A stretch of DNA of 64,000 nt from Mobula hypostoma (Eukaryota), in the NCBI RefSeq assembly GCF_963921235.1, contig NC_086097.1, forward strand, positions 112,284,001-112,348,000, in the 5' to 3' direction. The notes below the pieces were generated by a model. It saw nothing but the letters and a program-made list of their open reading frames with translations, was not told where the DNA came from and ran no database searches. Position numbers and translations under genes: made by a program. Positions 161-57,579 of the stretch are shown here, piece by piece. The stretch's first letter is position 1. Each line of letters begins with the position of its first letter.

Positions 161-1451
161 AATGAGGAAGAAAGATGTCTCCTTTCCCTCTTTTTCAATA
201 CTTTGAACAAGGGATAGTGAAGTACATTAGATCTATTCTAAACAATCAGGTAGTTTCTTTGTTTATCAAATGTTTTTGTCTGAGCTTCACTAACTTGATT
301 ATGCATTGAGAGATTTGACACAAGAGTTCACTATTCCACATGTTATTTCCAATCGATTATGCTGTATGTATGACCTATATTAGCACTCCTCTACCAGGAC
401 ACTGTTTCTGAAAGTGCAGGACTCCCTAAAAAAAATTAAATGGCGGCTTAAGTTAAATATTTGCCCTGACGTTTTCAGTTTCATATACGGTAATTTCTGT
501 GGTGTTATGCAATTAAAAAAGCATTTTATTTCACAGCAAAATGCGATGATGATAATGCCAATTAGGTTTTACTACCACTGTGCAGAATAAGGACGTCTGC
601 CAAGTAAGTAAAAAAATTATATTGAATGTTGGCTCCTCTCCATTATCAAATTGTATTGCATTAAAAGTTCATTCAAAATCAATCTATATTTACCCCAACC
701 CCCATCAACTGATATCATTTAAACTTCCGAGGTCAATGTCTCAGTCACCTTGGCCACAGCAAAGGCCTAATTAGGCCTGCAGCCACCAGCCATTCTGAAA
801 GGACGACTGGAGGCACATTTTTGCTGTCAAAAGTGTTTGACGATTGTATTATCTAGCACACTCAATCATTGCACTAGAATTTCAAAGCAAATATACACAA
901 CAACTGAAATAACAACACGATTAAAAAAAAACAACATAGCCCATGGTGTCAAAGAGAAATGCACACTAAGCATGAATGGAAATGATGACCAAAAGCTTGT
1001 CCAAAGTGATATTACCATGATACGGACAAGTTAAAAGAAGAAAGAAAGGTGTGGAAATAATGAAAGAGAATTTCTGAGCTTGGGGCAAGACAGCTCAAAG
1101 GTCAAAATTGAGTGATTACTTTTATGGATAACCCAGTCTAGATTATGTTCGACTGAGGAAATGGTACTTGAAGGCCTCACATCCGGGACAAAGTTCATGG
1201 TTTACCACCAGTGAATCCTGACCTCCTGTATAGCTCTAAGGCCTGGGCTGCTTTCAGTTGGCATTTCCCGGCATGGTAAAAATATGTACAGTCATAGGGT
1301 ACTACAGCATGGAAACAGGCTCTTTGGCCCAACTAGTCCATGCTGACCACGGCATCCACCCTTCGAGTCCCTGTTGCCCAGATTCAGCCCATAACCCTCC
1401 AAGCTCCTTCTCTCCAAGTGCCTGTCCAAATGGATCTTAAAGGTTGCAATT

Positions 1452-1648
1452 GGGGTGTTTGGGGTGTCAGGGAGGGGTAGCACCTCTGCTGGGGGAACAT
1501 GTCGCGTCCTTTTCAAGGCGGTTAGTCCACCTTAGGTCCCCACCTGGCACTCATCTCTCACCTGTGGCTCCCCGTAGCTGTTTGTATGCGACAGCGGCCA
1601 CACCCCGGGCGACAGCTTCGACAAGCCGGCTAAACCAGGTGAGGGTTG
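1452..1648 (+). ncRNA. HDV-like self-cleaving ribozyme (predicted), copy 1
   Basis: P1 GGGGTGT 1452-1458 / ACACCCC 1600-1606; P2 CTCTCACCTG 1555-1564 / CAGGTGAGGG 1636-1645; P3 GGC 1566-1568 / GCC 1597-1599; L3 starts TCCCCG; P1.1 GG 1607-1608; P4 1613-1628; J4/2 GCTAA with putative catalytic C1630. Confidence 0.75.
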
Positions 1649-2009
1649 TCGACGGGTCTCAAACCCTCGGTGAGATAGGGAGTTGTCTATCCCAGCATGT
1701 GAAGACATACTCCGGCGGATTGAGTGGACTAATGGAAGGTCCAACGGTCAAGAAGGCAGTCTCTGCAAGCACCGTGGAATGTGTAGAGCAGGACAAGACA
1801 CAGAAGACGTCCTGGTCATCCACTGCGCCTGGTCCCATCTCCAGCCATCTCGACTCTGTCTTGCCACTGGATCCAGATGGGAATTGGGAAGAGAGAGTGA
1901 GGCTGACGCTGCACAACTCTCCCTCACTTAAATCCAAATCATGCGCTAGTCGCGACACCAGCATAATGGTGTTGAGGTCCTCATCGACGTTGACGATGGA
2001 TGAACAACC
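1452..2009 (+). mobile_element. Non-autonomous RTE-type retroposon (5' UTR joined to 3' tail), copy 1
   Basis: 13-bp TSD AAAGGTTGCAATT (1439-1451, 2010-2022); no credible ORF; RTE-like tail GACGATGGATGAACAAC; second copy at 11487-12048. RTE assignment from recalled consensus sequences. Confidence 0.8.
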
Positions 2010-2099
2010 AAAGGTTGCAATTGAGCCTGCCTCGACCACTTCCTCCTGCAGATCATTCCAGGTACTCACTACCTTCTGTGTAAAGAAGTTGCCTCAAAT

Positions 2100-2570
2100 T
2101 TCAAACAACACACAGAAAATGCTGGATGATTTCAGCATGTCAATGAAAATGAGTAGATAGTTGATGTTTCAGACCAAGACACTTCATTAGGACTGAAAAG
2201 GAAGGGGGAAGATGACTGAATAAAAGGGGAGGGGGGAGGAGAAGGAGTCTATCTGGAAGATGACAGAGGAATCCAGGTGGTTGGGAAAGGCAAAGAGCTG
2301 GAGAAGAAGTAATCTGATAGGAGAGGGGAGTGGACCATAGGAAAAGGGGAAGGGGGTGTGGACACAGGGGGAGGTAATAGGTAGGTGAGAAGAGGTAAAT
2401 GACCAGAGTGAGGAATTGAGGAAGAGGGGAGGGGGAGGAACTTTTTTTTACTGGAAGAAATCAACATTCAATTTTTATTCATTTCCCTATATGCTGCCTG
2501 ACCTGCTGAGTTCTCCAGCATTGTGTGTGTTTTGCTGTGGATTTCCAGCATCTGTAGACTTCCTCATGTT
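2100..2570. mobile_element. Penelope-like element remnants (both orientations) with degenerate hammerhead
   Basis: Same family as 51403-52094: aaatgctgga..., purine-rich tract, atgctgcctgacctgctgagtt; decayed hammerhead on the minus strand near 2160-2195. Confidence 0.65.
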
Positions 2571-10299: not shown

Positions 10300-11486
10300 C
10301 AATACTCTTACATAGACAACAGTGCATGCGCAGATAACAGATCAATATGTAGTGCCAAAGGGGGTGTCATTGCTCTCAAAGAAATAGATCCATACATTAC
10401 ACTTCCTCTCCCTTTAGATTAATGCAGCATAAAACTGTACATGTACAAAACATTCAATTTCCCTTTCATAAACCCATAATCCAAATAAACATGTTTTCAC
10501 AATAACAGTCCATAACTACCTTCACAGTTCTAAAGATTTTGGGTGGTGCCTTGTTTCTTTTAGGATAGCACCTCTGGACCTGTGGAGTGGCATCAGGTTT
10601 GGCAGGTGTCTTGTCTAAGACAACATTCTCGGTTTCCGGTGTCATGTTGCTGTTAGTGACATCATCACTGAGAGGCAAGTTAGGTGTCCGTCTTGTTGGA
10701 TACAGTTGATGCAGGTGTCTTTTTCGGTTGAGCATCCAGTATCTGGTCCACATGACGTCTGCATGTCTGATTTCCAACATCGACTATGTACATCAACAGT
10801 CCCGTTCTTGTAGCTATCCTACCAGGTGTCTACTTGTCTTCATGGTAATAAGTGCCAGGACTTCTTGTCCAATCTTGAAGCTCCTTACTGTGTCACTTGG
10901 CAACTGGCTGAACTGCTTATTCTTCACTTCCCTCCGTAGATCTAGTTTCAGGAGGTTTAAGCAAGATCTCAGATTCCTGTTCATGAACAGCATTGCGGGT
11001 GATTGATTTGTCGTTGCATGAACAGAGTTCCGATACACCAAAGGAAGTTGTCCACCTTGTGCTGTAGAGAAATGTCCTCCATGACCATCGCTTTAATGGG
11101 TTTCTTGAAGGTTTGAATAAACCTTTCAGCTAACCCATTCATTGCAGGGTGGTGAGGAGCTGACTTGAAATGTCGATGCCATTTTTTTTCATGAACAGTT
11201 GGAATTCTTCTGACGTGTATTGTGGTCTGTTGTCACTCACAATTTGTTCTGTTAAGCCATTTCTTGCTAAGATAGTCCTCAGAGCAGAGACAGTTTTTGC
11301 TGAGGTGCTTGACTTCATTGTTATTACCTCCAGCCACTTCGAATGAGCATCCACTTTAGGATGTAGTATGTAAGGCACTGGACACACTTTATGGAATCTT
11401 GGTGCTGCTGTTTCATCCAGTTCAGTTTTGGCCTTCATGCCGTTGAGTTTATCAATTCCCTTCTCAAACACCTTATCATTAGCATT

Positions 11487-11680
11487 GGGGTGTATGGGGT
11501 GTCAGGGAGGGGTAGCAACTCTGCTGGGGGAACATGTCACGGCCTTTTCAGGGCGGTTAGTCCACCTTTGGTCCCCACATGGCACTCAGCTCTCACCTGT
11601 GGCTCCCCGTAGCTGTTTGCATGTGACAGCGGCCACACCCCGGGCAACGGCTTCAACAAGCCGGCTAAACCAAGTGAGGT
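11487..11680 (+). ncRNA. HDV-like ribozyme (predicted), copy 2
   Basis: P1 GGGGTGT 11487-11493 / ACACCCC 11635-11641; P3 GGC/GCC; GGGCAA junction; perfect P4 CGGCTT/AAGCCG; J4/2 GCTAA (C11665); one mismatch in P2. Confidence 0.7.
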
Positions 11681-12191
11681 AGCTGACAGGTCTCAAACCC
11701 TCGGTGAAATAAGGAGTTGTCTATCCCAGCATGTGAAGACAGACTTCGGCGGATTGAGCCTACGAGACCAATGGAAGGTCCAATGGTCAAGAAGGCAGTC
11801 TCTGCAAGCATCGTGGAACGTGTCGAGCACGACAAGACATAGAAGACGTCCTGGTCATCTACTGCGCCTAGTCCCATCTCCAGTAGTCTCGACTCTGTCT
11901 TGCCACTGGATCCAGATAGGAATTGGGAGACGAGAATGAGGCTGACACTGCGCAACTCTCCCTCACTTAAATCCAAATCATGCGCTAGTCTCGACACCAT
12001 CATAATGGTGTTGTGGTCCTCATCGACATCGACGATGGACGAACAACCAAAGGTTGCAATTGAGCCTGCCTCGACCACTTCCTCCTGCAGATCATTCTAG
12101 GTACTCACTACCTTCTGTGTAAAGAAGTTGCCTCAAATTTCAAACAACACACAGAAAATGCTGGAGGAATTGACGACGACGATGGACGAAC
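11487..12191 (+). mobile_element. Non-autonomous RTE-type retroposon, copy 2, with captured flank and duplicated tail
   Basis: Core 11487-12048 homologous to 1452-2009; 12-bp TSD ATCA(T/C)TAGCATT at 11475-11486 and 12192-12203 inside the Gypsy pol. Confidence 0.85.
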
Positions 12192-14964
12192 ATCACTAGC
12201 ATTAAGCAGCTGTGCCAGTCTCTGGTTAGTGCTACCATCTGAGCTGCTGTTACCCATTGATGTCACACTGTGAACTTTGATTGAGTGCCAGTCTAATTGG
12301 ATCCTTTTCTCATTTACGTCTGAAAAGTGCTGGCCCTCCCTTTCCAAATACATAAAGTTCTAATTGTTGTGTTTGGCCTCCTTACATCACCTTCACTTTC
12401 AGTATGCCTTTGGGGGGACAGTTTTTCATCTGTGTAGCTCTTTAGCATCACTGAGGTCTTCTCTAATGGTATCTTAGAAAACAGTCTCTGGAATTTAGCT
12501 TCTGGAATTATAGACAAAGTTGACCCTGTGTCCAGCTCCACTTTCCATTTTACACCAGACGCATCTATTGTGATCCATAATACATTGCTAACTGTTTCAG
12601 TAATACTATGCAGTTCTAGGCATGACTGTTCACTTTTCTCAGTCTCTATGCTTCTGTTTTACATTTGGCAATTTTATTCATTTGCTTAGCTTTATGTTTG
12701 AGACTTTTCACTCGGTTGTGCTTTTTGTCTGCCTTGCGCACTCCCTCTATGTGACCTTGTCTGGGACACTTTCTGAAGACTTTTTCTTTGTACTAAGTTA
12801 TTTGCATCATGGGAGGATTTGCCACATTGATAATATTTTTGGCTTTTTGCACCATTCAGGGACATCTTGTGCATTTCACATTCTAACCTCCTTTTCTGTA
12901 GTTCTGCTGCATCATTTGCTGTAGTCTATTACGACATTGCAATGGTCAATGCCCATTCTAAGGTTAGGTCTCTTTCTGCCAGTAGTCTTGTTTGAGTGCT
13001 TTGACTATGCATGACACAGACAAGCCTTTCGCTGAATGTGTCAGAAAGTCCACCTGTGAAGTCACAGTACTGGGAAAGTTTGTGCAGTTCTGCTATGTAC
13101 TCATAAAGACTTGCATTTTTTGACTGGTTCCTTTTGTAAAATTTAAATCTCTCAGCTACTACCAGCGGTTTAGGGCTCAAGTGATTTTGTAAAATTCTAA
13201 CTATTTCCTCAAACGTCTTGCTGGCTTTTCAGGGGTTACTAAATAGAGACCACGTCCTTGCACCCACTTAGCTAAGAAGTGCTGGGGCCTTCTTTTGCTC
13301 CTCCACATTACAATACAGTTCAACGCTCTTGATATATAACTCCCAGCCTTCATTAGCACTATCAAATTTGTCAGCTTTCCCGACTGAAGCCATTGTCATG
13401 TTATTTTCACTTTAAATTCAGTGCGTCTTTCACTGTTACTCATGCCTTTGTTGGCATCTGCGACGACCTTCTTGTGCTGTTTAATACTTGCTGTTTCATC
13501 CTGTAATCGTCCTGTAACTATCTGAGCAGTTGGTGATATTTTCTGACACTCAGGTTCGTGTTCCTCACCAATTTGCTGTGTCTGTGCACAACTACATATC
13601 AATTAAATAAAAGTACACATGTGGGAGATGGCTTTAACTGGAGTATTCACACTGAGCAAGAGAGAGAGAGAGGGAGAGAGAGAGAGAGAGAGAGCAATGC
13701 GCATGTGTAGACTATAGTGCATGTGCAAACAACAGATCAATACATAGTGCTAAGTGAGGGGGTGACCATTGCTCTAAAACAAATAGATCCATACGTTACA
13801 AATACTATCTTCTTCTCAAAGCTAATTAATAGCTCCAAGACCTAGGCCTCAATACCTCAATGCTGCTCAATTTCTTCACTTGCAGTCCTCAGTCAGTTTG
13901 AATTGGCAATAACATCTCCTCCATTATCTCTCTCATCACAGGTACACCACAAGGCTGTGTGCTTAACCCCCTGCTCTACTCATTTTATATCATGACTGTG
14001 AGGCTAAGCACAACTCCAATGCCACATTTTGAGTTTGCTGATAACACAACTGCTGTTGGCTGAATCAAAGCTGATGATGAATCAGCATATAGGAGGGAGA
14101 TTGAAAATCTGGCTGAGTGGTGCCACAACAACCTCTCACTCAATGAAAGCAGAACCAAGCAGCTGAGGGGGAGGAAAGCAGAGGCCCTTGAACCAGTCAT
14201 CATCAGGGGATCGGTGGCGGAAAGGGTCAGCAATGTTAAATTCCTCAGTGTTATTATTTAAGAGAATCTGTCCTGGGTCAATCTTAGACAGAAAGTGTCA
14301 TTACAAGTAAAGCACAGCAAATATTCGCATGTCATCTAAAACTATGACAAACATCTATTGATGTGTGGAGAATACACCGACTGGTTGCATTACAGCCTCG
14401 TATGGAAACACCAATGCCCTTGAATGGAAAAGCCTACAAAAAGTAATGGATACAGCCCAGTCCATCACGGATAAATCCCTTCCACCATTGAACACATCTA
14501 CAAGGATTGCTGTTGCAGGAAAGCAGCATCCATCATCAAGGATCCCCACCATCCAGGCCATGCTCTGCTCTTCTCACTGCTGCCATCAGGAAAGAGGTAG
14601 AGGAGCCTCAGGTCCCACACCACCAGATTCAGGAACAATTATTACTCCTTATCCATCAGGTTCTTGAACCAAAGTGTATAACTTCACTCACCCCATCACT
14701 GAACTGTTTCCAGAACCTATGGATTTATTTTCAAGTACTCTTCATCTTATGTTCTTGATATTTATTGCTTATTTATCTATGATTGGTATCTTTTCTTTTT
14801 ATATTGCTGCTTGATGTCTTTTGTACATTGGTTGTTTATCCATCTTGTTGTATGCGTTAATTTCACTGATTCTGTTATGTTTCTTCCTATTTACTGTGAA
14901 TGCCTGCAAGAATCCCAGTGTTGCATATGGTGACATATATGTACTTTGATAATAAATTTACTTT

Positions 14965-17464: not shown

Positions 17465-17632
17465 CACAAACACAAGGAAGTCTGCAGATGCTGGAAATTC
17501 AAAGCAACACATGCAAAGTGCTGGAGGAACTCAGCAGGTCAGGCAGCATCTATGGAAATGAATAAACAGTCGAATTTCAGGCCGAGACACTTCTTCAGGA
17601 CTGGAAAGGAAGGGGGAAGTTGCCAGAATAAA
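17465..17632 (-). mobile_element. Penelope-like terminal fragment with near-intact hammerhead
   Basis: Minus strand reads agtcCTGAAGAagtgtctcggcctGAAAttcgact. Confidence 0.7.
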
Positions 17633-19107: not shown

Positions 19108-20289
19108 TTAAATGCTCATTAGAGTGAGATTGTTCAATCTGTTTTGACCCATGATGCTCCTTAGTTCATTTTTAACCCTTTTCAGTTTTGAAAAGGAGCA
19201 TTCTCCACTGCAGTTGGTAACCATGAGTAACAAATAGATGCGCAAGGCATTTTCTACATTTGGAAAATATGACTCCAAAGAATTGTCAGTTATCAAACAG
19301 TACAACTGTAACTCTACAAGGTCTTGTTTGGCGCCAATATGAGGAGCAAGATTAGTTTTCAACAGTTCAGTAAACTGCACGAATTCTTCATCAAGACTTT
19401 CTTCCAGATCTTCTGGATATGATTTAATAAGAGTTGATGACCTCTTTACGATCTTTTCAGGTGTAAACGACTGTAACTGATGAAGGAATCCAAAAACACC
19501 ATTCACATTTAGATAAGCTTTCTGCCTTTTTGACAGGGCAGAACGCAAGTTATCAATAATGGCAAGCAATGTTCGGCTTTTAAACTTCTGAGAAGGTGTT
19601 TGAGATTCAACAAGTGGATCAAGAGGGCTGGAACCACTGAAATCATCATTTGCGCAATTTTGCTTGTGTTTTCTTCGAGTTTGCTGTTGATAATGCCCAC
19701 ACTTAGTCATATCTTTGGCTTTTTGCTCAATGTCTGAAGAAGTAGACCGCATAGCTTGAATATATCCATGCAAGGATTCATAGAGTGCACAAGCTGTGTT
19801 AAAGACTTGGCCAGAAGATTGCAAAGAAGCACTGGTCATTTGAAAATGCTGTAATACTTGATCCCACAATATGACCATTATTCCTGTTTCCAACTTCATC
19901 ATGGTTGAAAGTAGTCCACGAGCCTGTTGTCGACACGCTGCCTTCAGATCATTGTTAATTGAAATGTCATCCAAGACTTGTTTTATTGCAGAAAAGCTGT
20001 GTAAAAGTGCTTTTGTTGCATCTGCAAGAGCTGACCACCTGGTATCTGACATTCTTTTCACAATGGGCAAATGAGCACCATCATCAGATAATGCAGCTGA
20101 AAAGCGATCCCACCGATAAATAGAAGCAGAAAAAAATGTGTAGAGGCTTTCTACAAATTGAAAGAAAATTAATGTTTCTTGACAAAATTCAGCAGCACAT
20201 TTTCCAACCAAATTTAGTGAATGTGCAAAACATGGAATGTAATCCGCAAACTCATTCAGCTCTTTAATTTGTGCTTGTAAGCTACTATA
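19108..20289 (-). pseudogene. hAT (ZMYM1-like) transposase C-terminal ~390 codons, still open; upstream piece at 23757-23897
   Basis: CFAHSLNL, TRWS and the dimerisation motif TNCSGECSFSKLKRVKNELRS. YDNASNM at 23760-23790 joins YSSLQAQI once the CR1 is removed. Confidence 0.88.
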
Positions 20290-23200
20290 CAATAGACAAT
20301 AGAAAATAGGTGCAGGAGTAGGCCATTCAGCCCTTCGAGCTAGCACCACCATTCACTGTGATCACGGCTGATCATCCACAATCAGTACCCTTTTCCTGCC
20401 TTCTCCCCATATCCCTTTACTCCGCTATCTTTAAGAGCTCTATCTAACTCTTTTTTGAAAGAATTCAGAGAATTGGCCTCCACTACCTTCTGAGGCAGAG
20501 CATTCCACAGAATCACAACCCTCTGTGTGAAAAAGTTTTTCCTCAACTCCGTTCTAAATTGTCTACCCCTTACTCTTAAACTGTGACCTCTGGTTCTGGG
20601 CTCCCCCAAAATCAGGAACATGTTTCCTGCTTCTAGCGTGTCCAATACATTAATAATCTTATATGTTCAATCAGATCCCCTCTCATCCTTCTAAATTCCA
20701 GTGAATACAACCCCAGTTGCTCCAATCTCTCAACATATGACAGTCCCGCCATCCTGGGAATTAACCTTGTGAACCTACGCTGCACTCCCTCAATAGCTAG
20801 AGTGTCCTTCCTCAAATTTGGAGACCAAATCTGTGCACAATATTCCAGGTGTAGTCTCACCAGGGCCCTGTACAACTGCAGAAGGACCTCTTTGCTCCTA
20901 TACTCAATTCCCCTTGTTATGAAGGCCAGCATGCCATTAGCTTTCTTCACTGCCTGCTGTATCTGCATACTTACTTTCAGTGACTGATGAACAAGGACCC
21001 CTAGATCTCATTGTACTTCCACTTTTCCTAACATGACACCATTCAGATAGCAATCTGCCTTCCTGTTCTTGCCACCAAAGTGGATAACCTCACATTTATC
21101 CACATTAAACTGCATCTGCCCATTCACCCAATCTGTCCAAGTCACCCTGCATTCTCATAACATCTTCCTCACATTTCACATTGCCACCAAACTTTGTGTC
21201 ATCTGCAAATTTGCTAATGCTACTTTTAATCCCTTCATCTAAATCATTAATGTATATCGTAAATAGCTGTGGTCCCAGCACCGAGCCTTGCGGTACCCCA
21301 CCAGTCACTGCCTGCCATTCTGAAAAGGACGGACCCATTAATTCCTACTCTTTGTTTCTTGTCTACCAACCAATTTTCTATCCATGTCAGTATCCTACCC
21401 CCAATACCATTTGCTCTATTTTTGCACACTAAGCTCCTATGTGGGACCTTATCAAAGGCTTTCTGAAAGTCCAGGTACACGATATCCACTGGCTTTCCCA
21501 TGTCCATTTTCAAAGACACATTCTCAAAAAATTCCAGAAGATTAGTCAAGCATGACTTCCCCTTCGTAAATCCATGCTGACTCGGACCTATCCTGCCAAT
21601 GCTATCCAAATATGCCGCTATTACATCTTTTATGATTGATTCCAGCATCTTCCCCACCACTGATGTCAGACTAACTGGTCTGTTTTCTCTCTCCCTCCTT
21701 TCTTAAAAAGTGGGATAACATTAGCTACCCTCCAATCCGCAGGAACTGATCCTGAATCTATAGAACATTGGAAAATGATTACCAATGCGCCCACGATTTC
21801 TGGAGCAACCTCTTTAAGTACCCTAGGAGGCACACCATCAAGCCTTGGGGATTTATCAACCTTCAGTCCCATCAGTTTACCCAACACCATTTTGTGCCTG
21901 ATGCGAATTTCCTTCAGTTCCTCTGTTACCCTAGGTCCTCTGGCCACTATTACATCTGGGAGATTGTTTGTGTCTTCCTTAGTGAAGACAGATCCAAAGT
22001 ACCTGTTCAGCTCGTCTGCCATTTCCTTGTTCCCCATAATAATTTCACCCGTTTCTGTCTTCAAGGGCCCAACTTTGGTTTTAACTAATTTTGACCTCTT
22101 CACATACCTAAAGAAGCTTTTACTATCCTCCTTTATATTCTTGGCTAGCTTACCTTACTACCTCATCTTCCCCCCCCCCCCCCCCCGTGTTGCCTTTTTA
22201 GTTATCGTCTGTTGCTCCTTAAAAGTCTCCCAATCCTCTGGCTTCCCACTCATCCTTGCTATGTTATACTTCCTCACTTTTATTTTTATACTGTTCTTGA
22301 CTTCCCTTGTCATCCACGATCGCCCCTTACTCCCCTTAGAACCTTTCTTCCTCTTTGGAATGAACTGATCCTGTATCTCTGTATTATTCCCAGAAATACC
22401 TGCCATTGTTGTCCACTGTCATCCCTGCTAGGGTATCTTTCCAGTCAACTTTTGCCAGCTCCTCCCTCATTGGTCCATAGTTCCCTTTGTTCAGCTGTAA
22501 TACTGACACTTCTGATCTTCCCTTCTCCCTCTCAAATTGTAGATTAAAACTTATCATATTATGGTCACTACCTCCTAATGGCTCCTTTACCTCGAGTTCC
22601 CTTATTAAACCTGGCTCATTACACAGCACTAAATCTAGAATTGCCTTCTCCCTGGTTGGCTCTAATACAAGCTGCTCTAAGAATCCATCTCTGAGGAATT
22701 CCACAAACTCCCTTTCTTGGGGTCCAGTACCAATTTGATTTTCCCAGTCTACCTGCATCTTAAAATCCCCCATAACAACCGTAGAATTACCTTTGCGACA
22801 TGCCAATTTTAACTCTTGATTTAACTTGCACCCTATATCCAGGCTACTGTTTGGAGGCCTGTAGATAACTCCCATCAGGGTCTTTTTGCCCTTACAGTTT
22901 CTTAGTTCTATCCATACTGACTCTACATCTCCTGATTCTGTGTCCTCCCTCACAAGTGACTGAATTTCATTCCTCACCAACAGGGCCAACCCACCGCCTC
23001 TGCCCACCTGTCTGTCCTTTCAATGGGATGTATACCCCTGAATATTCATTTCCCAGCCCTGGTCCTCTTGCAGCCATGTCTCTGTTATTCCCACAACATC
23101 ATACTTGCCAATTTCCAACTGAGCCTCAAGCTCATCCACTTTATTTCTTATACTCCTTGCATTCATATATAATACTTTTAATCCTTTTAAAGTAATACTT

Positions 23201-34897: not shown

Positions 34898-35751
34898 AGT
34901 TTTTCTAGCATTTTCTGCTTTTGTTTCAGATTTCCAATATCTGCAAGATTTCCATGTCAAGTTTTTAGTAATCCATGATTAACTTTTTAGCACAGGCAAG
35001 CAAGCCCAGCAATATACCTTTAAAAATAAATTACCTATAACAGAAACTAATTTAGCAGGAAACTTTAATTTTGATTACCATAATTTTGACAAAATTACGT
35101 TCATTCCAAAAACTTCAGTGTGAAAAAATACTTATAGCAAATGCCTTTGTTCATAGTTGTAGAACACACTTCCATCCTGTGATGTCTGAAAGCAAATAAG
35201 AAGTGCCATTCTTAAGGGATTTTTAAATTCGATAATGCGTTCAATCGTTCGTAATGCATTCATTAAATTTTATAATTTGAATTTGTACATAGGCAAAATC
35301 ATAATTTATTTAGTGTTTAAGTTTTTGTTCATATTATTTATTTTGTTAATTATTTAACTCTACATTAATTGCTTTTAAATGAAGGCCTAAGGCTTATTAA
35401 CAGCCATATAGTGAACAGGAAATAGGAAATTTGGCCAGCTGACTGATTTGACACACAAACCTGCAAAAGGTTACCATTGGTGGAGGGAGGGTAGCATGAT
35501 TTAGGAGCAGGTCTGAACAAGGACAAATTTGATGCAACGCTATTCTTACCAAACATGGAATTACTTATATTTCATATGCACATTTCACAGTATTCAAAAT
35601 GAAAGCAGACAAGCTGACCATTTTATGTCTTTCCATGTCAGCTTTTTACTAGTAACATAGTTTTAATTTTAATTCTTAAAAAAAGAGATCAATTTTATAA
35701 CTTGAGCAGAACTAGAAGCAGAAGTTTCAGTCAACTATTCTTACACAATTA

Positions 35752-36096
35752 CCATGGGTGATTGATAAGTTTGTGGCCTAAGGTAGAAGGAGATGAGTTA
35801 TACAGCTCTTGTTACATGCACATGCAGTTCAACTCTTTGAGTGATTATGCAGAAAGTTTGAAGTTAATAACTCATCTCCTTCTACCTTAGGCCACGAACT
35901 TATCAATCAACCCTGCTGTAGACCACTTTTTGGAGGTCCAAGACGCCGACTTTTACAAAGAAGGGATCCGTATGCTCTATGGCCGTTGGACTAAGTGTGT
36001 AAATGTAGGAGGGGACTATGCTGAAAAATAAATGTGCTAGGTTTTCTAAAATTGTCTCCTTCTACCGTAGACGATGAACTTATCAATCACCCCTGG
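35752..36096 (+). mobile_element. mariner-derived MITE with an extra internal TIR
   Basis: TA-flanked; TIR GGGTGATTGATAAGTT.GTGGCCTAAGGTAGAAGGAG; encodes the mariner C-terminus FYKEGIRMLYGRWTKCVNVGGDYAEK*. Confidence 0.85.
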
Positions 36097-36104
36097 TATA
36101 TATT

Positions 36105-40454: not shown

Positions 40455-43400
40455 GCATGTGGGTGCTTTAGATTTTCACGAGTGAAGGCATTGGCATTGG
40501 ATAGCGTGACTTGTGCAAAGTTCCTTACTAGCCAAGTAGGTCAGTCTTCCTGTAATGTAACTACCAGGCAATATCTTATAAAAGTTGTGCCAAAGTGTAC
40601 CTTTTGTCTAACTTTATTGTATCATGACTGATTGTGAATGTGACAGCGTAATGTGAATGTTTAGTCGCTGTTTGGAAGTTCAGCACGTGTGTACTAAAAA
40701 GTAGTAGACGTCTTAGATGAGATGTGTTCACTTCCATTTTTGCTGCTATGTATAAGGTACAGGGTTGGTGGGATTCTAATGTTGTTTGTATTGTGTTCCT
40801 TCAGAATTGCCACTACCGTATTAGTTCTGTATTAGTTTGTGCAGTTTGCTTTATGCAAGGGGATAGGCACAGATCCCAAGAAGGTCTCAGCTGTTCAGCA
40901 GTGGCCAGTACCATCTACAGTTAAGGACTTAAGATTGTTTCTTGACTTTTGCAGTTATTATCGACGATTCATTCAGGGATTCTCAAAGATTGCAGGTCCA
41001 CTGCATGATGTAGTGAATTTATGTACCAATGTAGGGACTCCAAGTAAAACAAACCAGCTGTTGAAACAGCCTTGGACAGAAGAATGTCAAACTGCCTTTG
41101 ACTTGCTCAAAAAGAAAGTGACCAGTTCCTCCATCCTTGGATTTGCCGATTTCTCCCAGCCCTTTATAGTGGAGACCGTTGCCAGCAATCATGGGCTAGC
41201 AGCTGTGTTAAACCAACAGCAGGGAGAGGCAAAGAGGGTATTGCATATGCAAGCCGGTGATTAAGGAATGCCGAAAAGAATGATAGAAATTATAGCAGCA
41301 TGAAATTGGAGCTGCTGGCACTTGTGGGCTGTAGTAGAGAAGTTTCGTGGATACTTGTTGGGTTCCAAATTCACTGTAATCACTGACAATAACCACCTAT
41401 CCCACTTGAAAACTACCAAGTTGGGAGCAGTGGAGCAGAGATGGATCTCACAGCTGTCAGTGTTTGACTTCAATGTCCAGTATCATCCGGGTCGGAGCAA
41501 TACCGTTGCTGATGCATTCTCTAGGGAGCCATTTGCAGGGGAACTTGAGCTGTCTCAGAGGATGCGGAGTTTGATGGGTCTGTGGCAATCTGTAGTTTGA
41601 TCAATCGCGGCACTGCTCTTGACCTGACACTAGTTACCGCTGGTCTTAACAGCTGTAGGGTTAGGCAAATTCAAGCCTGGGAAGCTGGTACTAGTGATGT
41701 AAGTGGTCCGACGCAAGGGAACCCTTCATCCCTCCCAGGTTATTCTAATAGAGACTTGCATACTTTTCAGCAGCAAGACCCTGTGTTAAGTGTCCTAAGA
41801 AACTAATGGGATCAGAAAAGACAGCTGAGTGGCCAGGAGTGTAAAACTCTGCCTAAATCTGTTTTAACATAGAAACATAGAAAATAGGTGCAAGAGTAGG
41901 CCATTCGGCCCTTCGAGCCTGCACCGCCATTTATTATAATCATGGCTGATCATCCAACTCAGAACCCCACCCCAGCCTTCCCTCCATACCCCCTGACCCC
42001 TGTAGCCACATTTGTTTCTGTTAAAGCACTGAGACAGTATCAGGGAGCGTAAGGGGTTACTGTATAGGGTGGTTGAGGACGAGAAGCTTGGGGAGTGTTA
42101 CCAGCTTCTGGTATCTATCAGCTTGAGGAGCAAAGTGTTAGAGTATGTACATGACTCTGTGGGCCATCAAAGCATAGAATGTACTCTGGAGTTGTTGAGA
42201 AGCTGATGTTTTTGGGTGGGCATACACGAGGATGTGGCACGGTGGATCAAAAATTGCCCATGTAGTGCGCTAAGATGCCGCAACCTAGGATCTGTCCCCC
42301 CATGAAGTCATTTCTGGCTTCTAGGCCGTTTGAAGTTGTAGCTGTAGATTTCACTGTGTTGGAGCCGGCAAGTGATGGGCGTCAGACTGTCTTAGTGGTC
42401 ACAGATGTTTTCACTAAATTTACCCAAGCATTTCCGACTCGGGATCAAAATGCAGATACCACAGCAAAGGTGCTCTTGAGGGAATGAGTTCATGAAGTAC
42501 GGTGTTCATGAGAGATTGCATTCTGACCAGGGCCGTAACTTCGAAAGTGAGATCATAGCTGAGCTTTGCAAACTATACAGGGTAAAGAAGAGCTGTTCTA
42601 CACCTCATCATCCTACTGACAACGCGCAGTGCGAGCGTTTCAAGAGGATGATGCATGATTTGTTGCATATGTTGCCTCCAGAAAAGAAGCACAGATGGCC
42701 AGAACATCTACCCGAGTTGGTGTATTGCATATAATGCGACACCTCACGCCACCATTGGGTATTCACCTTACTATCTGTTGTTTGGGGTGGATCCCTACTT
42801 GCCCGTGGATGCTCTGCTGGGGCAAGAACAGACTGTGGACTGGAAACATGACTGGCTAGCTGTACACCAGAGCTGACTGAGGGATATGCATGCCAGAGCA
42901 AAAGAATACTCTGAACAGAAGGCGGAAGAACGCATTGCCTGACAGGAGGACAAAGTTTACTGTCCCAAAGTTGATGTGGATGCACTGGTTTACTTGAGGA
43001 ACAGACCATTAGGCCGCAATAAGATCCAGGATGCTTGGAACTCAACTGTCTACAGGGTGGTAGAGATACTGGGCAACACCTACACGGTGGAACCTTGGGA
43101 GGGTGGGCCTAGCAAGAGGGTGAACAGGGTAGACATCAGGCCCTGTGAGAACCATCCCAATCCAGCTACCCAAAGGAGACTGCAAACTCCAGTAACCCCT
43201 GGGGCATGAATCAGATTCTGAGGATTCAGAAAATGGTGTGATATTGGTAGAAGGTAGGTCAGAACAAGGTGTACAGAATCTTGACCCTAGCCTAAACAGC
43301 ATATCTTCCAAAAATACGACACCTTCTGGAACTGAGACTGGGGAGCCGACGACTACTAATGCAGGGGCGGAGGTCAGTAGCCCTCTTGTGGCAGCACCCT

Positions 43401-44507
43401 GCAGGAGTAAATGAGTAAATGCTGGACAGCACCCTAACTCCCATCGCGAACCAAGGTCAGTCCTTGATGAGGCCTCCCCAAGTCCAGCAGCAGTGTCTGA
43501 GATACTGACTAGTCTCAGTTCAGTTCTCTTTAGCGAAGCAGTTAAGGAGGTTAAAAGTACCCTTGTAGTGAGCCAGTAATCAAGGACGATTACTTGAATG
43601 CTGGGAAGAATGCAACTGGGTGGCCGTCGAATCTTATTCATTATTGTTGAAGTGTACTTAGGCATCCACCTGGGTAATACTAGAATAGTTGTCTGTGCCT
43701 TTAAGTGGAGACGGTGATGTCATTACGCATGAGTGGAATAGTGGGGAGACTATTTCTGTTTTCTGCAGATGAAGCTGGTGGAGTTTTGGGATTAAGTTCC
43801 TCCCAGAGATACTGGGTATGGTGAGGAAAGGTGAGTGTTAATCAACAATATCCATGTGAATTCATTTATGCTCATTGGCGAATCGAGAATATCGGTAATG
43901 TGACATGTTTTGCATGTGGGTGCTTTAGATTTTCACGAGTGAAGGCATCGGCGCTGGATAGCGTGACTTGTGCAAAGTTCCTTACCGGCCAAGTAGGTCA
44001 GTCTTCCTGTAATTTAACTACCAGGCAATATCTTGCAAAAGTTGTGCCAAAGTGCATCTTCTGTCTACCTTTATTGTATCATGACTGATCGTGAATGTGA
44101 CAGCGTAACGTGAATGTTTAGTCTCTGTTTGGAAGTTCAGCACATGTGTACTAAAAAGTAGTAGACGTCTTAGATAAGATGTATTCCCTTACATTTTTGC
44201 TGCTATGTATAAAGTACAGGGTTGATGGGATTCTAATGTTGTTTGTATTGTGTTCCTTCAGAATTGCCACTACCATATTAGTTCTGTGGGGTTTGCTTTA
44301 TGCATTTTTATACTGCATATGCAATTCATCGATACACAAGGGCGTGGATTGACAGTTAAACTGAGATTGTAATGGCAGGAACTGGTTGTAAGTTCGTTTG
44401 TTTTGTTTTGAGACCCTCTTCTGGCACTAAAACATTTAAAACAGATAAAGGAATTAAAACCTGAAAAAGTATTTGTTGTCCTGAGTGTGTACTTTTCCCC
44501 AGCTACA
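40455..44507 (+). mobile_element. Gypsy LTR retrotransposon, rearranged: partial 5' LTR, RT end, RNase H, integrase, full 3' LTR (43611-44507)
   Basis: 40455-~40855 repeats 43913-~44303; TDPKKV...YYRRFIQGFSKIAGPL, VITDNNHL, VAVDF...[19 protein letters not shown]; 3' LTR TGCAACTGGG...CCCAGCTACA after a purine tract. Confidence 0.9.
41867..42010 (-). mobile_element. Short CR1 3' end inserted in Gypsy pol
   Basis: aacatagaaacatagaaaataggtgcaagagtaggccattcggccc, the same tail family as at 20290. Confidence 0.85.
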
Positions 44508-49373: not shown

Positions 49374-51402
49374 TATTTCTGCTCATCTGCTCCAGACCCA
49401 TCTATTCTGTCTCCCCTCATAACAGAAACACCTTACTTCAAGCAATATCCTGGCAATTCTCCTCTGCATTCTCTCCAGCACTTTCACATCCTTCCCATGC
49501 TCAACACAAAAAAAGCCAAAATAAGGTCACCATATGAAGATTTGTTCAAATCATTTTCATCCTGCTTCATCCTCTGCCAAATCTTCCACATAATCTTTTT
49601 ATTGCTTTATAATTTTTTAGAACTCCAAACTGAGGTGACAGCATGTGTGAAGCCACAGAAAAGGAAAAGCTTTTCTTTATACGTAGCTCTTTAAATGAAA
49701 CAATATAAATTCTGGACTAGTAGAAATTGTGAAGCACATTTACTTGTAAATAAAATCGTCTTGGCAGCAAATCTAAATGAATGGAATTGACACATCTTGA
49801 GCATTCAAACGGCACCATATAAAACCATCTCGCTACTAAGCAAAATATGAACAGCAAGTCTGCCTTTTGGATGAAGCTGTGACAGTCAAGCCAAATTAGT
49901 ATATTAAAAGAAGGAAATGAGAACCCTGTGGCTACGTTCGAGCACGCTTGTTGAAGCATGCAATTTTGGGATGTTTAAATTATGTTTGCCTTATTACTTC
50001 AGACATATTAAAATTTTACAAGATGCAAAGGTAGATAAGTTAAGATTTCTTTGTTAAAATGGGCAAGATTAAGGGATGTATTGATATGCCTTTAAAACAA
50101 CAAAAAGATAACATAGTGCAAAAAGAACCAGACCTGTGAATGAAAGAGTTTAGAATAAAATTTACACTGATTTTGAGAGCATGGCAGGAGAAACCTTCTA
50201 TACATACGGCATAAACTACATACGAGAGAGTTGTGATTAATAAGTCACGTCAATGCTTAGCAACGGTTCAAAAAAAAGTAAAAATACAGTAACAAGATAA
50301 ACTCAGGGTACAGAAACTACTGCTCAGAGCTCACCCCGTCAGGGACTAGTTGAAGCCAATGACCAATTTCTATTTCAGAATTTCAATGCAATTTTATGCA
50401 AATAAAATATATAATCTCAAAAATTTTGAGAAACTTGGATGCATAACATATGCTCTAAATAACACAGAAAATAGTATAACAGTTATTATGGTAAACATAG
50501 AAAAAAAACCTACAGCACAATACAGGCCCTTTGGCCCACAATGCTGTGCCGAACATGTACTTACTTTAGAAATTACCCAGGGTTACTCATAGCTCTTTAT
50601 TTTTCTGAGCTCCATTTACATGCCCAGGAGTTTCTTAAAGGACTTCCAACAACGTCGCCAGCAGCCCATTCCACGCAGTAACCACTCTCTGCGTAAGAAA
50701 AACTTACCCCTGACATCTCCTCTGTACCTACTTCCAAGCAGCTTAAAACTGTCCTCTCTTCTAAGTCATTTCAGCCTTTGGAAAAAGCCTCTGACTATCC
50801 ACATGATCAATGTCTCTCATTATCTTATACATCTCTATGAGGTCACATCTCATCCTCCGTCACTCCAAGGAGAAAAGGCCAAGTTCACTCAATCTATTCT
50901 CATAAGGCATGCTCCCCAATCCAAGCAACATCCTTGTAAATCTCCTCTGCAACCTTTCTATAGTTTCCACATCCTTCTTGTAGTGAGGTGACCAGAACTG
51001 AGCACAGTAGTCCAAGCGGGGTTTGACCAGGGTCCTATATAGCCGTAACATTACCCCTCGGCTCTTAAGCTCAAACCCACGGTTGATGAAGGCCAATGCA
51101 CCGTATGCCTTCTTAGCCGCAGAGTCAACATGCACAGCAGCTTTGAGTGTCCTATGGACTCGGACCTCAAGATCCCTCTGACCCTCCACACTGCCAAGAG
51201 TCTTACCATTAATACTATATTCTGCCATCATATTTGACCTACCAAAATTAACCACTTCACACTTATCTGGGTTGAACTCCATCTGCCACTTCTCAGCCCA
51301 GTTTTGCATCCTATCAATGCCCAGCTGTAACCTCTGACAGCCTTCCACACTATCCACAACACCCCCAACCTTTGAGTCATCAGCAAATTTACTAACTCAT
51401 CC

Positions 51403-57348: not shown

Positions 57349-57579
57349 GCTTTATTACTCCCATTTGTGACCTTTCTAATGTTTCCATGAACTGCCTCTC
57401 ACTTCACAGCTTTCCAAAACCTGACAGCATCAAAGTTTGACACCCATTCAACCTGCTTGCTTGGTCAGTGCTTTATTACTCCTATTTCTGACTACTCTAA
57501 TGTTTTCACAAACTGCCTCTCACTTCACAGCTTTCCAAAACCTGAGAGCGTTGAAGTTTGACACTCATTCAACCTGCTT
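57349..57579. repeat. Tandem duplication, period 121 bp, ~1.9 copies
   Basis: gctttattactcc...aactgcctctcacttcacagctttccaaaacctga...cattcaacctgctt at 57349 and 57470. Confidence 0.9.

Follow-up and report, generated by a model that had tools for sequence, protein, structure and literature searches.

Capture of a neighboring copy's 3′ flank by a short RTE-like retroposon, probably templated by DNA repair

Introduction

Among described systems, the closest to the structure reported here are the single-copy Pack-TIRs, as presented in the available text of Tan et al. 2021 (PMC8277862). In both situations a short stretch of nearby DNA is added to an element already in place, and a breakpoint carries microhomology. 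That text places the donor in cis at less than 15 kb for 160 of 281 single-copy captures in DNA transposons (56.9%), which it attributes to gap repair, and it reports that for 91 of 97 primate cases an orthologous element exists without the capture. The locus that we describe agrees with Pack-TIRs in its donor distance (10,039 nt) and in its breakpoint homology, which consists of a common tail at the 5′ switch and of 2–3 nt (ATT/ATC) at positions 12169–12171, the latter being weak when taken alone. However, the host of a Pack-TIR is a DNA transposon with terminal inverted repeats, whereas the host here is a retroposon with a one-sided tail and variable TSDs. Also unlike Pack-TIRs, the donor is a sister copy that offers real homology, and the piece concerned is the 3′ flank of that copy, such that the outcome looks like a transduction.

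Partnered 3′ transductions of L1 and SVA elements, as the available portions of two reports describe them (PMC9311842, PMC12350158), exhibit the same succession of element, source flank, second tail and new TSD. In contrast to those transductions, the second tail of our locus is element sequence and not poly(A), and its donor is only 10 kb away; human L1/SVA 3′ transductions are mostly interchromosomal, according to the accessible text (PMC9311842). LINE template-switch chimeras, including those of U6 with RTE-like elements (Doucet et al. 2015, PMC4476161, in the part available), likewise join a 3′ piece of an element to another template within one TSD, but here the other template would be read-through RNA transcribed from a neighboring member of the same family. 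Finally, in FoSTeS-MMBIR or one-sided invasion, a 3′ end switches to a nearby site, makes a short copy and returns by microhomology (PMC4888836, which in its available part reviews switches to nearby templates; short templated insertions are treated in the accessible text of PMC5508229). In the present case, by contrast, the first switch relies on repeat homology, and the retroposon tail ends up duplicated.

Thus, both of the leading mechanisms that we consider below are already known. In the literature that we searched, outside of which most subscription journals lie, no report was found of the same structure in an RTE element.

Results and Discussion

Two copies of a short RTE-like element

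We analyzed a stretch of 64,000 nucleotides of Mobula hypostoma DNA (contig NC_086097.1, positions 112,284,001 to 112,348,000), referred to as the window. It contains two copies, in the same orientation, of a short RTE-like element of 554–558 nt, and no third copy was found within its 64 kb. The relevant features are as follows.

1439..1452, forward strand: copy 1 left TSD, 13–14 nt, identical to 2010–2023
1452..2009, forward strand: copy 1, the donor, a short RTE-like element (core 1452–2005, then AACC at 2006–2009)
2010..2132, forward strand: copy 1 right TSD and native 3′ flank, the source of the captured tract
11139..11486, reverse strand: LTR-retrotransposon integrase relic, the host sequence of copy 2 (Pfam rve, E 1e-11)
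11475..11486, forward strand: copy 2 left TSD, 12 nt, 11 of 12 identical to 12192–12203
11487..12044, forward strand: copy 2 core with its first tail (tail 1, 12022–12044)
12045..12171, forward strand: captured tract, comprising AACC, copy 1 right TSD and flank; 124 of 127 positions identical to 2006–2132
12172..12191, forward strand: second tail (tail 2), the last 20–23 nt of the element
12192..12203, forward strand: copy 2 right TSD, one mismatch in 12 relative to 11475–11486

The two copies are 90% identical over 559 columns (1452–2009 against 11487–12044). The final G of the copy 1 left TSD is also the first base of the element. Both TSDs end in ATT immediately before the element's first GGGGTG (1449–1451, 2020–2022, 11484–11486 and 12201–12203), which could reflect a target preference of the family, 5′ microhomology, or a common origin of both 5′ junctions.

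No Rfam match at the gathering score was obtained for the element or anywhere else in the window, and the element lacks a small-RNA head. The last 66 nt of each copy (11985–12050 in copy 2) are predicted to form two stem-loops, with z values of −2.35 and −2.29 (5 and 3 of 200 shuffles were equally good). Short elements such as Bov-A, RTESINE2 and RTE-N2_Lch (Kojima 2018, PMC5786205) offer a parallel, since the available text describes them as non-coding, with a body like an RTE 5′ UTR, a short structured 3′ end, TSDs and a high copy number. Over 74 nt, positions 1887–1960 of copy 1 resemble a metagenome contig (L002) at 82% (E 2e-15), on which a frame weakly matching Exo_endo_phos (E 2e-4, under the curated cut-off) follows ~300 nt later. 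On the basis of a motif, we take this endonuclease-like frame to be putatively of RTE type. The sequence comparison provides modest support for homology between the element body and an RTE 5′ UTR, and the element would fit a bipartite non-autonomous RTE as described in the accessible part of PMC5786205.

Searches for relatives were conducted with several short probes. They yielded no further family copies. A 20-nt core motif occurred at two metagenome loci and at no viral locus; one of the two (L001) is a 25-nt match only, and the other (L002), noted above, is a distant relative. Three motifs looked for in the literature matched no paper. Tail motifs did not reveal the 3′ end of an autonomous partner in prokaryote genomes or viral loci, with no occurrence in the former and two viral loci matching over 17 nt only. 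A protein search using a frame that spans the tail gave one match among 17 candidates, and the tail lies outside that match.

Extent of the tract and the second tail

Between tail 1 and the right TSD of copy 2 there are 147 extra bases, made up of the 127-nt tract and the element's last 20 nt. The original prediction had drawn attention to a 117-nt match in this interval, and we find that 12049–12165 and 2010–2126 indeed differ at a single position (2059/12098). As it also proposed, the matched stretch opens with the right TSD of copy 1 (2010–2023, identical to 1439–1452), and a repeated tail at 12171–12191 (TGACGACGACGATGGACGAAC) precedes copy 2's own TSD (11475–11486 / 12192–12203). The flank match is not due to chance (BLAST E 8e-59 within the window). 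The flank of copy 1 consists of an old repeat relic followed by the start of a second old repeat; these are putatively CR1 and Penelope, the labels given in the original prediction.

The length of 117 nt, although correct as far as it goes, stops at the first further mismatch, and the real tract measures 127 nt with three mismatches, the additional two being 2127/12166 and 2130/12169. The letters of copy 2 at 12166 and 12169 agree with those of paralogous repeat ends at 17515 and 63242 and with repeat family D10. Six paralogous ends were located by motif, two of which are like copy 2 at this point, four are one base shorter, and none is like copy 1. Because copy 2 has the paralog state at both further mismatches, the copied tract runs to 12168–12171, and the counterparts of 12166 and 12169 in copy 1 probably changed after copying. 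The ATT at 12169–12171 fits flank and tail alike, and this is the origin of the weak microhomology mentioned above.

Tail 2 is without the 5′ arm of the terminal stem-loop and holds only its 3′ part. The three tails of the two loci differ from one another at 3–4 of 23 sites in each pairwise comparison. Differences between tail 1 and the tail of copy 1 fall at three CpG sites, and both of these tails have T at 12029/1990 where tail 2 has A (12176).

The second tail bears directly on a plain 3′ transduction, in which a read-through RNA of copy 1 ending at ~2132 would have been reverse-transcribed from its end. Such an event gives the canonical order of element, source TSD, flank, second tail and new TSD (PMC12350158, in its available text), which is the order seen in copy 2. 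Nonetheless, we regard it as very improbable. The second tail is 20–23 nt of element sequence, neither poly(A) nor a simple repeat, and it does not follow position 2132 at the copy 1 locus, such that a second template would be needed. A plain transduction also encounters the distance problem discussed below.

Direction of copying and the insertion site

Of six paralogous regions examined, two (20343–20557 and 50510–50708) match the sequence on either side of copy 1 in collinear order. The flank is therefore native at copy 1, and the same alignments rule out the reverse direction, in which it would be native at copy 2. Segmental duplication is likewise rejected, as copy 2 lies in unrelated DNA within a TSD of its own.

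The insertion site of copy 2 was assessed with assembled contigs from four of 24 listed runs, representing two samples and two studies. Contigs of other copies of the integrase relic skip the insert in 14 of the 15 joints listed (of 151 in total), with skipped lengths of 717–727 nt. These joints run from 11472–11487 to 12193–12205, and the best empty-site joint, 11479 to 12197, removes exactly 717 nt in 6, 9, 9 and 11 contigs of the four runs. Because relic-paralog contigs skip it, the whole of the 717 nt is foreign to the relic, and a single TSD encloses all of it.

We also weighed an assembly chimera between the two nearby repeat copies. Among the 32 contig pieces listed of 48,444, the junctions of copy 2 are not crossed, which might be taken in favor of a chimera but does not in itself speak against the junctions. 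Moreover, the tract differs from copy 1 at three sites, two of which carry the paralog state, all three tails differ mutually at 3–4 of 23 sites, and the TSD and the 717-nt empty-site joints fit exactly. An artifact of this kind is therefore hard to credit. The joint from 12045 to 12192 is absent among the 15 joints listed of 151, and the depth of the family swamps the locus in these data. In one sample, both runs yield a contig over 12273–12450 that shows no other letter and one gap.

Distribution of the flank in the family

If the flank belonged to the consensus of the family or of a subfamily, it would be shared by many dispersed copies. Summed contig depth over core bins is 47,980–555,759 in the four runs, a depth that is not a copy number but is in keeping with a very abundant family. 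Over the flank bin at 12070–12110 it is 1,484–2,400, compared with ~10 for a single-locus contig, and the core bins exceed this by a factor of 20 to several hundred. In one run (X2), 90 records leave the element at 12045 and continue into unrelated sequence (agreement 0.37). The low flank depth and these departures place the end of the family near 12045, and the flank is not part of a family-wide consensus. In all four runs, loose ends at 11563, 11583 and 11641 point to a second, related RTE-like family that has only 11563–11641 in common with the element.

The nonzero depth of the flank bin does allow a few hundred flank-bearing copies, and copy 2 might then be a member of a minor subfamily with flank and second tail that was founded earlier from the copy 1 locus. 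We give this idea little weight. The observed flank depth is far under that of the core and can come from old paralogous repeats at 85% likeness, and the 90 records of run X2 depart at 12045 with unrelated sequence. Moreover, such a member would still have had to land next to its founder.

Distance and mechanism

The two copies share one orientation, and 10,039 nt separate the donor from the acceptor; this distance is the best discriminator between mechanisms. For a genome assumed to be 2.5–4 Gb, the chance that a random retro-copy lands within 10 kb of its source is 5–8e-6. Repair captures, on the other hand, are mostly local, so a donor 10 kb away in cis favors this route, and we conclude that the extra sequence of copy 2 probably arose by repair-templated capture from copy 1. 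The 64-kb window reveals only nearby pairs, which weakens the distance argument, although it still stands, since such a selection benefits whatever process generates pairs at short range. A dense family might often supply a neighbor from which to copy. The original prediction had likewise preferred a templated insertion or a template switch to a plain 3′ transduction. That preference holds, mainly because of the 10-kb distance, a reason that it did not give; the reason that it did give, divergence, is weak (see below).

In a repair-templated capture, copy 2 would have retrotransposed normally into the integrase relic, acquiring its TSD and a tail of its own, the present tail 2. Breakage or fork collapse close to where this tail begins (~12015–12027, in the terminal stem-loop) would subsequently free a 3′ end, which could pair with the homologous sequence of copy 1 and be extended through tail, TSD and flank, beyond the region of homology. 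Release of the extended end at 2130–2132 and rejoining through the 2–3 nt of microhomology (ATT/ATC) would complete the structure. The backward reach of the copied tract might be the tail alone or up to most of the core. Under this mechanism tail 1 is expected to derive from copy 1 and tail 2 to be copy 2's own, in accordance with the T at 12029/1990 and the A at 12176. Against it, one TSD holds the entire structure, and the usual definition of the second tail of a transduction applies to it (PMC12350158, in the part available).

The enclosure of all 717 nt within one TSD is more directly accommodated by a single retrotransposition with an RT template switch. In that case, RT would have been primed on an element 3′ end, copied ~21 nt (tail 2), and jumped to the 3′ portion of a read-through RNA of copy 1 to copy flank, TSD 1 and the whole element, making copy 2 a daughter of copy 1. 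Chimeras of this type are known for RTE-clade elements (PMC4476161, in its accessible text). We consider a template switch possible, but clearly less probable than repair. It requires a landing 10 kb from the source, with the chance of 5–8e-6 given above, unless insertion is biased toward the source locus, and no report of such a bias was found in the literature searched. In addition, an intramolecular jump would give a tail 2 identical to tail 1 at birth, yet the two are distinguished by a transversion (12029/12176). The tract contains no intron, splicing or poly(A) from which an RNA stage could be read either way.

A further possibility is a local form of retrotransposition. Here, an RTE RT acting on read-through RNA held at copy 1 would have nicked DNA 10 kb away, with priming on the internal tail and then a jump to the end of the RNA. 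We think this unlikely. If it were true, tail-recognizing LINEs would both transduce flanks and hop locally, unlike the L1 pattern.

Divergence of tract and cores

The original prediction placed the divergence of the element cores at roughly 6–7% in two stretches and took the flank to be far less diverged. The former value is too low for the cores as a whole, in which we count 46 differences over 552 aligned columns (8.3%), in addition to 8 gap columns. However, 18 of the 46 differences fall in 70 CpG columns; the flank has one CpG and a G+C content of 43%, compared with 54% in the core. When expected differences are calculated from rates per site class (CpG, G/C and A/T apart, with indel-adjacent columns left out), ~6 are expected, whereas 1 is seen in 117 nt (P 0.02), 2 in 124 nt (P 0.05–0.06) and 3 in 127 nt (P 0.12–0.13). 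Counting tail 1 with the tract gives 6 differences against 9.5 expected (P 0.15). Thus, the contrast holds in the raw comparison over 117 nt (Fisher P 0.002), but the true tract end and the CpG/GC correction bring P to 0.05–0.13, and for this reason the dating argument is weak.

The tract nonetheless has only 3 differences, while the minimum in any 127-nt window of the core is 7. These counts lean toward a tract that is younger than the cores, by perhaps half, and alone cannot reject a single event. Lower divergence than in every core window would be in line with repair capture, and tract differences at about half of expectation speak against a template switch. Conversely, the lower age of the tract is without significance after correction (P 0.05–0.13, or 0.15 with tail 1), which counts against repair capture and agrees with the similar ages of flank and core that a template switch would produce. 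The three CpG differences between tail 1 and the tail of copy 1 are also many for a recent copy made by repair.

A pair of direct repeats of ~400 nt (40455–40857 / 43912–44304), 3,457 nt apart, served solely to check how evenly divergence is spread. The two repeats have 23 mismatches in 376 nt and are likely to be the paired LTRs of a single LTR element that is short or has lost internal sequence.

Ancestry of the cores

In the comparison with the family majority, 40 of the 96 differing rows are listed, 25 of them in the core. Copy 2 is private at 24 of these 25 listed core rows; copy 1 has the majority letter at 19 of the 24, realigns to the majority at 3, and is deleted at 2. The remaining listed row is a non-majority C common to both copies (1489/11524), where 98.7–99.3% of the family depth is G. 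This rare base is modest evidence for either core descent or a long conversion tract. It is consistent with the template switch, in which copy 2 inherits the core of copy 1. A long-tract version of the repair mechanism would also account for it and for the similar ages, but a short tract would make it a product of chance (by rough estimate 5–15%) or of a minor subfamily. That only 1 of the 25 listed core rows has a non-majority base in both copies may be taken in favor of repair capture, as may the location of the last non-CpG core difference (12014), directly ahead of the start of the tail 2 homology.

Depending on the assignment of 17 unpolarized sites, private counts for copy 2 and copy 1 range from 25:22 to 33:14. 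This asymmetry gives p values from 0.77 to 0.008 by site assignment and does not order the copies by age, which weighs against repair capture. Strand-biased editing of cDNA as the cause of the many changes in copy 2 was rejected, because G>A and C>T are both common.

Implications for the annotation of transductions

The locus is single and dead, it changes nothing in its host, and its value is methodological. Capture by repair that is primed in a retroposon tail yields the same pattern of element, flank, tail and TSD that pipelines score as 3′ transduction. Such patterns are used to name source elements, and in RTE-dense genomes the donor distance and the ancestry of the cores should be checked beforehand. 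Many structures of this type that adjoin their donors and have cores descended from them would be evidence of local hopping by non-LTR elements.

Other features of the window

A tandem duplication occupies 57349–57458 and 57470–57579, with a period of 121 nt and 88% identity. On the reverse strand, 19108–20352 is an open frame of 414 codons with a weak match to a hAT dimerization domain (E 2e-4), which weakly suggests the C-terminal part of a hAT-like transposase and is unusually long for a window so rich in repeats. Inverted repeats are present in 35753–35915 (49 nt, 94%, 65 nt apart) and in 35750–36098 (44 nt, 86%, 261 nt apart). They lie inside a repeat end, and might represent a fold-back or an inverted repeat junction.
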